Position numbers and translations under genes: made by a program
Shown here: positions 1 through 5,566 of the stretch, in pieces
Numbering within the stretch: position 1 is the stretch's first letter
Layout: every line of letters starts with the position of its first letter
Virus record (IMG/VR): IMGVR_UViG_2675903253_000001
From: a virus
Lineage: Duplodnaviria; Heunggongvirae; Uroviricota; Caudoviricetes
Strand: one strand, 5' to 3'
DNA length: 21,913 nucleotides
Notes under the pieces: generated by a model
Database searches by the model: none
The model's input: only the letters and a program-made list of their open reading frames with translations
Told to the model about the DNA's origin: nothing

Positions 1-249
1 CTCGCCACGGGAATATCTGCGGCAGCGGGCTTGTAATGGGTTAAGTGATAACAGATGTCTGGAAATATAGGGGCAAATCCAATCGTCGCCGTATTCCCGT
101 ATTAACAGAGACCGTAGCCCGACGGGGAACTCCTTCTGCGCGAGTGTGCGGGAATAATCAAAAACGATGCACACCGGGGTTACCGGGTACACATATTTCA
201 TCATGCCAGCGAGTCCGGTTCTGGCACGGAAGAAACCGGACGTTATGAT

Positions 250-660
250 TTAGTGCGGAAATATTTGTGTAGTGTTCTGTATGTTCTCAGTAAAGAGTAA
301 TGAATTATCAAAGGTATAGTAATACCTTTTGTTTTCGTGGATATTTGTAATCCATCTGAAAACCCCTGCTGTAGCAAGATTTTTCCTGTATTCGTAAAAT
401 GATAACTCTCCTGATTTGAATCCTTTTAAGGTGGCTTCTATAAGGCATTTATTTTTTGAAAATCTTACATTTACAACCTTACCCTGTCCTTTTATTAAAA
501 CCGTATTATCGTTTTCAAGAACAAGATGAATATTCTCTGTGGCTAAATAGTAAATGTAATGTGAGACATTGTGACGTTTTAGTTCAGAATAAAACCAGTG
601 ATAGTTTAAATTATTTCGCACTTTATCGAATATTTGTTTAAAAATGGCAACCTGAGCCAT
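250..660 (-). CDS. Hypothetical accessory (moron) protein, 136 aa, homologous to an uncharacterised ORF at the right end of lambda; possibly DUF1398/YbcV-like (family assignment unverified)
   Basis: Six-frame ORF 250..675 on the minus strand. I prefer the second ATG at 660 (protein begins [11 protein letters not shown]...) because a GGAAGG Shine-Dalgarno-like motif sits about 8 nt upstream of it. DNA is AT-rich (17 G+C in the 60 nt at 421-480) against GC-rich structural genes. Position immediately upstream of cos matches lambdoid synteny. Confidence 0.6.
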
Positions 661-717
661 TGTAGTACCTTCCATGTGATATGAGGGGGCGTAGTCTGCA
701 CGATTATCTAAATTGCT

Positions 718-951
718 TCAATCTGGTCTAACCTGTTTTCTGAGCAATTCAGTAATGTCACTCTTTTCTTTGTTTGCTTCAGGCGAAACTCTTTTTTCTG
801 AGCACAGTCTCCGGCGGCAGGCTTCAATGACCCAGGCTGAGAAATTCCCGGACCCTTTTTGAACAAGAGCGATGTTAATTTGTTCAATCATTTGGTTAGG
901 AAAGCGGATGTTGCGGGTTGTTGTTCTGCGGGTTCTGTTCTTCGTTGACAT
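718..951 (-). CDS. Small Arc/ribbon-helix-helix-like DNA-binding protein, 77 aa (resembles DUF3950/YlcI-type prophage proteins)
   Basis: Six-frame ORF 718..951 on the minus strand. The segment RNIRFP-NQMIEQINIALVQKGSG-NFSAWVIEACRRRL fits the beta-strand/helix/helix pattern of Arc-type repressors (compare Arc FNLRWP-REVLDLVRKVAEENGRS-VNSEIYQRVMESF). Basic N-terminus. Lies just upstream of cos, where lambdoid prophages carry small YlcI-like genes. Confidence 0.6.
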   Translation of the reverse strand: MSTKNRTRRTTTRNIRFPNQMIEQINIALVQKGSGNFSAWVIEACRRRLCSEKRVSPEANKEKSDITELLRKQVRPD

Positions 952-1099
952 GAGGTTGCCCTGTATTCAGTGTCGCTGATTTGTATTGTCTGAAGTTGTT
1001 TTTACGTTAAGTTGATGCAGATCAATTAATACGATACCTGCGTCATAATTGATTATTTGACGTGGTTTGATGGCGTAGATGCACGTTGTGACATGTAGA

Positions 1100-1339
1100 T
1101 GATAATTATTATCATTTTGCGGGTCCTTTCCGGCGATCCGACAGGTTACGGGGCGGAAGGCGCGCGGGTTTTCGCTATTTATGACAATTTTCCGGTTTAA
1201 GGCGTTTCCGTTCTTCTTCGCCGTAACCTAATGTTTTTATTTAAAACACCCCCTGAAAAGAAAGGAAACGACAGGTGCTGAAAACGGGCTTTTTGGCCTC
1301 TGTCGTTTCCTTTCTCTGTTTTTGTCCGTGGAATGAACA
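1100..1339. other. cos: cos packaging site region (cosQ, cosN, cosB with R3/R2/R1 terminase-binding repeats)
   Basis: Sequence ...gataattattatcattttgcgggtcctttccggcgatccgacaggttacg / gggcgg... / cgcgggttttcgctatttatg... is near-identical to the joined right and left ends of lambda as I recall them. Repeated gtttcc / ggaaac motifs (cgtttccgttc, gaaaggaaacgacag, ctgtcgtttcctttc) correspond to the cosB R elements bound by gpNu1. The Nu1 start follows at 1340. Confidence 0.85.
1151..1162. other. cosN: cosN (12-nt cohesive-end site), sequence gggcggaaggcg; differs from lambda GGGCGGCGACCT in the 3' half
   Basis: Located by flanking identity to lambda: caggttacg | 12 nt | cgcgggttttcgc. Confidence 0.7.
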
Positions 1340-1859
1340 ATGGAAGTCAACAAAAAGCAGCTGGCTGACATTTTCGGTGCGAGTATCCGTACCATTCAGA
1401 ACTGGCAGGAACAGGGAATGCCCGTTCTGCGAGGCGGTGGCAAGGGTAATGAGGTGCTTTATGACTCTGCCGCCGTTATAAGATGGTATGCCGAAAGGGA
1501 TGCTGAAATTGAGAACGAAAAGCTGCGCCGGGAAGTTGAAGAACTGCGGCAGGCCAGCGAGACAGATCTCCAGCCAGGGACTATTGAGTACGAACGCCAT
1601 CGACTTACGCGTGCGCAGGCCGACGCACAGGAGCTGAAAAATGCCAGAGACTCCGCTGAAGTGGTGGAAACCGCATTCTGTACTTTCGTGCTGTCGCGGA
1701 TCGCAGGTGAAATTGCCAGTATTCTCGACGGGATCCCCCTGTCGGTGCAGCGGCGTTTTCCGGAACTGGAAAACCGACATGTTGATTTCCTGAAACGGGA
1801 TATCATCAAAGCCATGAACAAAGCAGCCGCGCTGGATGAACTGATACCGGGGTTGCTGA

Positions 1860-1885
<26 letters not shown>
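1340..1885 (+). CDS. nu1: Terminase small subunit gpNu1 (181 aa)
   Basis: ORF 1340..1885. Protein MEVNKKQLADIFGASIRTIQNWQEQGMPVL... matches lambda Nu1 as I recall it, including the N-terminal winged helix-turn-helix. Immediately downstream of cosB and overlaps the A start, as in lambda. Confidence 0.95.

Positions 1886-5566
<3,681 letters not shown>

Follow-up and report, generated by a model that had tools for sequence, protein, structure and literature searches.

The DUF3950 and DUF1398 genes beside cos of a lambda-like phage are, on balance, two separate accessory neighbours

Two minus-strand genes next to the packaging site of a lambda-like phage genome are best explained, with moderate confidence, as two separate accessory genes that happen to adjoin one another in the right-end region of a lambda-like prophage and do not form a two-component module. 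The pair is already catalogued as ynfO (DUF3950) and ydfO or ybcV (DUF1398), and it is known, extremely common and under-characterised. The cos-proximal gene (718-951) encodes a small, very basic and probably ribbon-helix-helix (RHH) DNA-binding protein of the YlcI/YnfO family, a near-constant fixture beside the lambdoid packaging site and terminase; the family is also represented in the regulatory region of PICI-like satellites, and we infer that the protein is a transcriptional (auto)regulator whose target is the non-coding DNA preceding its gene. The second gene (250-660) is AT-rich, horizontally shuffled cargo, dispensable for lytic growth, and appears to be transcribed from a predicted promoter of its own under putative host control via a PdhR box and stress induction; its soluble product may act in lysogens as a binding protein with no enzymatic activity and thereby modulate host physiology.

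By alignment to lambda, the window (the whole 21,913-nt stretch of DNA that was analysed) comprises the right end of a lambda-like phage genome and its left arm (Table 1), and the late region around the cassette looks complete and lambda-like, with cos, nu1 and A. Both cosQ and the variable positions 7-12 of the cohesive end have been described previously (PMC4669245). The nick site lies 199 bp from the DUF3950 start codon. Minus-strand ORFs were listed at 250..675 (141 aa) and 718..951 (77 aa), the alternative in-frame ATG at 675 adding five residues to the 136-aa DUF1398 protein; the two ORFs that a preliminary description of this DNA had placed at 250-660 and 718-951 were thereby present exactly as claimed, and its placement of the cassette beside cos agreed with the lambda alignment. 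Its count of 17 G+C within 421-480 was also exact, and GC content was 31.4% in the DUF1398 ORF, 44.4% in the DUF3950 ORF and 54.9% in the whole window. Positions 1-1340 of the window were matched at ≥80% coverage in 2629 of 5426 complete E. coli genomes (the region matched also takes in cos and DNA upstream of nu1). The earlier view that the cassette is widespread and under-characterised and not new was supported. A search against Rfam returned sub-threshold miRNA-like noise only, on the cosB hairpin.

Table 1. Coordinates of genes, packaging-site elements and predicted signals in the window
Feature	Position	Strand	Remarks
DUF1398 gene (ydfO/ybcV/lambdap78 family)	250-660	-	136 aa, soluble, pI 9.4
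Spacer between ORFs	661-717	-	57 nt, in frame here, single TGA at 718-720
Shine-Dalgarno-like GGAAGG	668-673	-	7 nt before ATG 660; kept in 14/14 spacer variants
Weak sigma-70-like promoter candidate, TAGACC-16-GATAAT	703-730	-	consensus 9/12, PWM scan; prediction
DUF3950 / YlcI-YnfO family gene	718-951	-	77 aa, pI 10.9, variable C-terminal tail
PdhR-box-like dyad ATCTGGTCTAACCTGTT	721-737	+	overlaps -35 candidate and last DUF3950 codons; predicted
Non-coding block upstream of DUF3950	1012-1077	-	66 nt; contains CCACGTCAA (1057-1065) and dyad 1021-1053
Promoter-like site overlapped by palindrome	1088-1115	+	
Perfect palindrome ATGATAAT-T-ATTATCAT	1099-1115		adjoins cosQ
cosQ-like GGGTCCT	1121-1127	+	alignment to lambda right and left ends
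Cohesive-end sequence GGGCGGAAGGCG	1151-1162	+	alignment to lambda right and left ends
nu1	1340-1885		alignment to lambda
Gene A	1860-3785		alignment to lambda

The preliminary description had guessed the families DUF1398 and DUF3950, and both guesses were right. The 136-aa protein matched Pfam DUF1398 (PF07166; gathering score 22 bits) along profile positions 1-119 of 119 (E = 3.3e-43, 147 bits), and the same 411-nt CDS is called in the RefSeq annotation of a 98% identical E. coli locus. It is ~75% identical to E. coli YdfO (PDB 2HH8, NMR) over 140 residues (E = 1.4e-69), has the duplicated alpha2-beta3 fold (alpha2-beta3 ×2) of that structure and contains no hydrophobic segment. Among DUF1398 alleles dN/dS was 0.2-0.35; both ORFs of the cassette are far beyond chance and are protein-coding genes under purifying selection. 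Homologues of DUF1398 numbered only 189 clusters, mostly fragments, in a HMMER search of 1.84 billion representative proteins, and in a species-level genome scan the genuine ones came almost exclusively from Enterobacteriaceae, the exception being three weak partial matches in Epilithonimonas. No toxin fold or toxin family was matched, a scan of PADLOC-DB 2.0 gave no significant model (best Csx23, E = 0.025, 12.6 bits, sub-threshold) and a match to HEPN_AbiA_CTD scored 15.8 bits, short of the 27-bit Pfam cut-off. DUF1398 is a narrow orphan-fold family, unlike enzymes, toxins and defence proteins. The lambda counterpart mentioned earlier for the 136-aa ORF does exist, as lambdap78, and its CRISPRi knock-down was neutral for plating (EOP 1.3-1.9). 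In databases lambdap78 is labelled either “putative envelope protein” or “head protein”. We rejected the “head protein” label, which phrog_413 and several RefSeq records attach to DUF1398, as it conflicts with the soluble structure and the neutral knock-down.

The DUF1398 gene runs on the minus strand, with the lysis genes on one side and the packaging genes on the other, and most phages with the same cos-proximal region are without it. The moron-like traits attributed to it were confirmed, namely its opposite strand, low GC and presence/absence variation between related phages. It resembles bor and lom in being opposite-strand or independently expressed, in its late-region position, in its deviant composition and in its variable presence; however, the products of bor and lom are exported to the envelope and have known phenotypes, whereas the DUF1398 protein is cytoplasmic. 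Of the promoter-terminator pair expected of a moron, scans gave weak promoter-like sites only, and no intrinsic terminator was found after position 250, where a hairpin at 214-240 lacks a T run and is no better than shuffles (z -0.8 to -1.2).

Expression of prophage copies, as had been proposed, is supported by transcription of the homologues in K-12 cryptic prophages (PMC7660256, PMC4077768). PdhR boxes were reported by genomic SELEX upstream of ybcV (AtcTGGTctgACCtcTT) and at ynfO/ydfO, and ybcV mRNA was down 10-fold in a pdhR mutant (PMC7660256). The dyad ATCTGGTCTAACCTGTT matches these SELEX-reported boxes and is the single match in the window, with 0.02 expected by chance. In exponential phase, ydfO was induced by [C2mim]Cl between 12-fold (microarray) and 116-fold (qPCR) (PMC4077768). 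Its expression was also altered upon DicC overexpression, and expression of T4 MotB in BL21(DE3) raised ybcV and ybcW >1000-fold, a rise that may reflect H-NS relief or DE3 induction or read-through. A claim that YdfO overexpression protects from oxidative stress was traced to a source that covers YfdO, YfdK and YfdS of CPS-53 and never ydfO; the claim is a YdfO/YfdO mix-up, and DUF1398 is therefore left with no phenotype attached to it.

The 77-aa protein matched Pfam DUF3950 (PF13132; E = 2e-20, 72.8 bits, cut-off 25) and NCBIfam YlcI_YnfO_N (NF041551; E = 9e-9, 35.2 bits, cut-off 30), and a PADLOC-DB 2.0 scan gave no match to it. RefSeq names the products of the pair “DUF1398 domain-containing protein” and “YlcI/YnfO family protein”. 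Across 26 diverse DUF3950 members the motifs IRFP and FS(A/S)WV are invariant; the N-domain as a whole is almost invariant, and the tails are mosaic. Variable sites in the N-domain show a third-position excess (14/11/32 by codon position), and between alleles 25-29 of 156 nucleotides differ, yet just 5 to 11 of 52 residues change. A second subfamily, of ~60 residues, was found in Pasteurella, Actinobacillus, Proteus, Morganella, Providencia, Yersinia, Serratia, Salmonella and others. Lambda has its own copy, a 64-codon ORF at 48109-48303 that carries no annotation in NC_001416.1.

The preliminary description had credited the 77-aa protein with a clear Arc-type RHH signature. The layout of the protein, a basic and arginine-rich N-terminal arm followed by the invariant I-R-F-P and then two helices, is shared in outline with the Arc, Mnt, CopG and NikR repressors, which are of similar size and have in common with it the basic arm, an N-x-R-x-P strand motif and two helices joined via a short G/S/N turn. 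Profile comparison set N-I-R-F-P in register with N-L-R-W-P of Arc. In hhalign runs with target sequences entered by hand, DUF3950 aligned to Arc with a probability of 12-16% (P = 0.002) and to Mnt and NikR in the correct register over 38-42 columns; with a more diverse DUF3950 alignment, equally good scores were reached by 0 of 40 shuffles for Arc, 1 of 40 for Mnt and 0 of 40 for NikR, and five non-RHH controls stayed at background level. CopG, ParD, CcdA and MetJ gave no signal against DUF3950 in hhalign. An AF2 monomer model of the protein (pLDDT 66) has helices at 19-32 and 34-52 and leaves residues 12-18 unstructured, with no strand, and the interhelix loop varies in length by 0-8 residues within the family. 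Foldseek of this model against the PDB returned no RHH protein (best E = 4.2; a TCP domain, 7vp3, at E = 9.4), profile searches of PDB sequences with two DUF3950 alignments yielded chance matches only and no RHH protein, and a Pfam scan at E up to 10 matched all 20 family members tried to DUF3950 alone. The likeness to the repressors consists of weak in-register profile matches, with no significant sequence or fold match. The N-terminal ~50 aa of the DUF3950 protein are probably an RHH DNA-binding domain; the register with Arc, Mnt and NikR above shuffles and the two modelled helices lend weak support to that part of the earlier claim, but its wording as a clear signature overstates the case, because hhalign probabilities did not exceed 16% and neither Foldseek nor the PDB-profile searches recovered an RHH protein.

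The two ORFs share one frame in the window across a single TGA and 14 sense codons, and 233-aa “fusion” proteins with W at the TGA codon exist in databases, as would be expected if the pair were a single DUF3950-DUF1398 gene read through its TGA or recently split. We regard this as vanishingly improbable. The DNA of the fusion entries has the TGA and does not give the stored protein under code 11, and the “fusions” are therefore genetic-code-4 gene calls. The spacer measured 57 nt in 48 of 88 related loci, 56 nt in 39 and 58 nt in 1, the difference lying in a C run, and since its length varies in this way the shared frame is a coincidence; in 8 of the 57-nt copies there is also an in-frame TAG. 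Programmed read-through is excluded, and both forms of the one-gene reading were rejected on the variable spacer and the TGA in the DNA of the fusion entries.

Whether the two genes belong together was judged from several independent lines of evidence. Their distribution shows no coupling. Among 50,697 phage records searched by tblastn, the DUF3950 N-domain was found in 153 and DUF1398 in 43. The DUF3950 gene lies ~390 bp from nu1 and divergent from it irrespective of what follows (DUF1398, Rz1 or a TonB_C gene), and in Stx phage 2851 it adjoins an HK97-type HNH-terS-terL module. Homologues of DUF1398 with ≤53% identity stand alone in the chromosome, no DUF3950 gene lying within 4 kb of them; examples are ycgX beside bluR and copies in Citrobacter, Klebsiella, Kluyvera, Pseudocitrobacter and Salmonella diarizonae. 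In lambda and DLP12, a 613-bp segment with a plus-strand ybcW-like ORF stands in place of window positions 735-788, so that the genes are ~650 bp apart and the DUF3950 protein ends in a different, shorter tail; in lambda, ybcV retains the region with the promoter-like site and the PdhR box.

These observations bear on the antitoxin-toxin or regulator-effector architecture suggested earlier for the cassette, in which the RHH protein would neutralise or repress a toxic or defensive DUF1398 effector. A small basic RHH-like gene does lie just upstream of the 136-aa gene, on its strand and separated from it by 57 nt, Qin (ynfO-ydfO) and numerous prophages show the same arrangement, and ydfO, the supposed toxin, had no insertions in a TraDIS study (PMC5821084). 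Nevertheless, the genes are not co-inherited as a unit, each also occurring alone, an opposite-strand insert parts them in lambda and DLP12, DUF1398 resembles no toxin fold or PADLOC model, and the spacer itself provides a promoter-like site and a PdhR-type box. An ASKA clone overexpressing ybcV is viable and reaches stationary phase with a glycogen phenotype (PMC2853380). The gene without TraDIS insertions is moreover the “toxin” itself, and ynfO is not mentioned in the main text of that paper (PMC5821084). H-NS as the cause of the ydfO result stays a conjecture, because the same main text contains no discussion of H-NS, AT-richness or repeated sequences. We consider a type II toxin-antitoxin or regulator-effector pair very unlikely, and the architecture proposed in the preliminary description was not supported. 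Some functional link, for example repression of the ydfO promoter by YnfO, may nonetheless exist, since ynfO/ydfO adjacency is common in E. coli. Just as improbable, in our judgement, is that DUF1398 alone is a prophage anti-phage or superinfection-exclusion factor: its moron position, low GC, variable presence and frequency in E. coli prophages would suit such a role, and with an orphan fold any function is conceivable, but there was no PADLOC match, the HEPN_AbiA_CTD score fell short of its cut-off, homologues also occupy non-prophage chromosomal sites (beside bluR and beside yedE/yedF-like genes) and no phenotype for the protein was found in the literature searched.

At lambda-type loci the 200 nt between cos and the DUF3950 start codon are 83-96% identical between alleles with 31-42% third-position divergence, and the non-coding block at 1012-1077 is identical in two of three allele comparisons. 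Consensus and PWM scans predicted no convincing sigma-70 promoter upstream of 951. The block could be a promoter or operator, or a mosaic segment exchanged along with cos. Conserved upstream DNA fits an autoregulated DNA-binding protein with upstream operators; these operators are something we infer, because a mosaic segment moving with cos would look identical. In four integrase-alpA-primase satellites a DUF3950 homologue lies antisense within the alpA-to-primase gene string, and the ~170 bp upstream of it contain three or four RGTG-N6-CACY dyads, for which the background expectation is 0.03-0.09 per 260 bp. In the Yersinia and Salmonella satellite copies the dyads start at -171, -109, -86 and -39, and, judged from sequence, the arrays are suggestive of repeated operator half-sites.

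The DUF3950 protein might alternatively be a factor of the packaging module that represses the terminase operon in lysogens or aids cos recognition or termination, the DUF1398 gene being unrelated cargo. Its position at cos and terminase does not change between packaging modules of the lambda and HK97 types, lambda itself carries a copy, the protein is extremely conserved despite the third-position divergence given above, and a palindrome and a plus-strand promoter-like site adjoin cosQ. We nevertheless hold this to be unlikely, as in satellites the homologues are found within the alpA-primase region, away from packaging genes. Classical lambda genetics and cosmid packaging, too, defined cos function without the DUF3950 ORF. 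The YlcI/YnfO protein might also control packaging-gene expression in a way so far unrecognised, or mediate cross-talk between phage and satellite; this idea is likewise doubtful, and a shade more so. A conserved DUF3950 regulator common to lambdoid phages and satellites would be the one thread with some novelty.

Since the proteins match DUF1398 and DUF3950 and carry the corresponding RefSeq labels, the cassette corresponds to ynfO-ydfO as arranged in the Qin prophage of K-12. Families, order, orientation and adjacency are the same as in the window, Qin-type loci keep the 57-nt spacer and a PdhR-type box is in the same place; the DUF1398 allele, however, differs at about a quarter of its residues, and the Qin prophage is decayed whereas the late region of the window is apparently complete. 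The pair is among the commonest of E. coli prophage genes, and the structure of one of the proteins has been solved since 2006. A ruling against a toxin-antitoxin pair spares a misdirected experiment and keeps two separate questions in focus, the targets of the cos-proximal DNA-binding protein and the ligand of the DUF1398 protein. It is also worth flagging that the “head protein” label, the code-4 fusions and the confusion of YdfO with YfdO are annotation errors that are spreading. Homologous genes are found at the same genome end in lambda (lambdap78 and the 64-codon ORF) and in DLP12 (ybcV and ylcI). Lambda differs from the window in having bor downstream, and it aligned with window positions 81-734 at 83% identity and with 789-1400 at 95%.

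The name "head protein" is attached to the DUF1398 gene in phrog_413 of PHROGs and in several RefSeq phage records, lambda included. The label is at odds with the NMR structure, which is that of a soluble protein without hydrophobic segments, and with the neutral outcome of CRISPRi knock-down; it seems to be a misannotation that has spread between records. Literature on the family member ydfO was also affected: greater oxidative-stress resistance upon YdfO overexpression (PMC4077768, citing PMC3105296) was rejected as evidence, as the cited study covers YfdO, YfdK and YfdS of prophage CPS-53 without mentioning ydfO, and the attribution is a gene-name mix-up. Escherichia coli K-12 ydfO was classed as "essential only by TraDIS" despite being a cryptic-prophage gene (PMC5821084), a result for which the main text of that paper offers no explanation; our guesses are AT-richness with occlusion by nucleoid proteins, or read mapping to multiple copies.

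Database artefacts were found among both contigs and proteins. Eight whole contigs (∼3.5 kb; L100, L101, L106, L108, L109, L114, L130 and L131) matched the lambda right end, yet were filed under Brevibacillus, Arcanobacterium hippocoleae (as "plasmid unnamed1", CP136411.1), Aeromicrobium, Flavobacterium, Pedobacter, Polaromonas and Cohnella. Identity to lambda was 99.8 to 99.9% over ∼3447 bp in seven of the eight, and 100% over 1736 bp in the other (L100, Brevibacillus). These contigs are control-DNA contaminants, as many error-ridden ENA contigs of ∼3.5 kb represented in the protein database also seem to be. Database "DUF3950-DUF1398 fusion" proteins (P0014 and P0010; loci L004-L007) carry W where the DNA has TGA; they were products of short contigs translated with genetic code 4.

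Reference lambda itself has an intact YlcI/YnfO-family (DUF3950) ORF at a distance of 199 bp from its right cohesive end (see table). This ORF is unannotated in NC_001416.1 and called "hypothetical protein" in newer lambda records. At the left edge of the window, positions 1-80 did not align to lambda, and the sole PHROG match of the plus-strand ORF at 45-248 was a weak, partial one to an Rz-like spanin. This phage type is without bor, since Rz/Rz1 directly precede the DUF1398 gene in related loci.

Coordinates of features in the window, lambda and phage/satellite Pmp7 (L175, lambda; L166, Pmp7)
Feature	Location	Strand	Details
DUF1398 gene	window 250-660; NC_001416.1 47042-47575 (= L175 743-1276)		
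YlcI/YnfO-family ORF	NC_001416.1 48109-48303 (= L175 1810-2004)	minus	intact, 64 codons; reference lambda
Promoter-like site	window 1088-1115	plus	GTGACA-16-TATCAT, 10/12
Perfect palindrome	window 1099-1115		ATGATAAT-T-ATTATCAT; immediately left of cosQ
DUF3950 ORF	L166 3001-3180	plus	unannotated, 59 codons; NCBIfam E 6e-12

The window's cohesive end (1151-1162) is GGGCGGAAGGCG, differing from that of lambda (GGGCGGCGACCT) at positions 7, 8, 9, 10 and 12; at least five of the loci retrieved share this variant. Positions 7-12 are reported to tolerate variation (PMC4669245), although five changes exceed the number in the examples given there. The cos-side palindrome overlaps the −10 element of the plus-strand promoter-like site, which would read across cos into nu1.

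DUF3950 homologues are also carried by satellites from Pasteurella, Proteus, Yersinia and Salmonella (L166, L168, L171 and L174). In the Pasteurella phage/satellite Pmp7 (OR544138.1), the strand opposite to the DUF3950 ORF bears a 224-aa CDS annotated as a "transcriptional repressor", which looks spurious. Upstream of the DUF3950 gene in all four, three or four copies of an RGTG-N6-CACY dyad (14-15 bp) fall within ∼170 bp. They start at −171/−109/−86/−39 in both L171 and L174, and the offsets in L166 and L168 differ from these by no more than about 12 bp. The 9-mer CCACGTCAA of one satellite dyad is also found upstream of the lambda-type DUF3950 gene (window 1057-1065).
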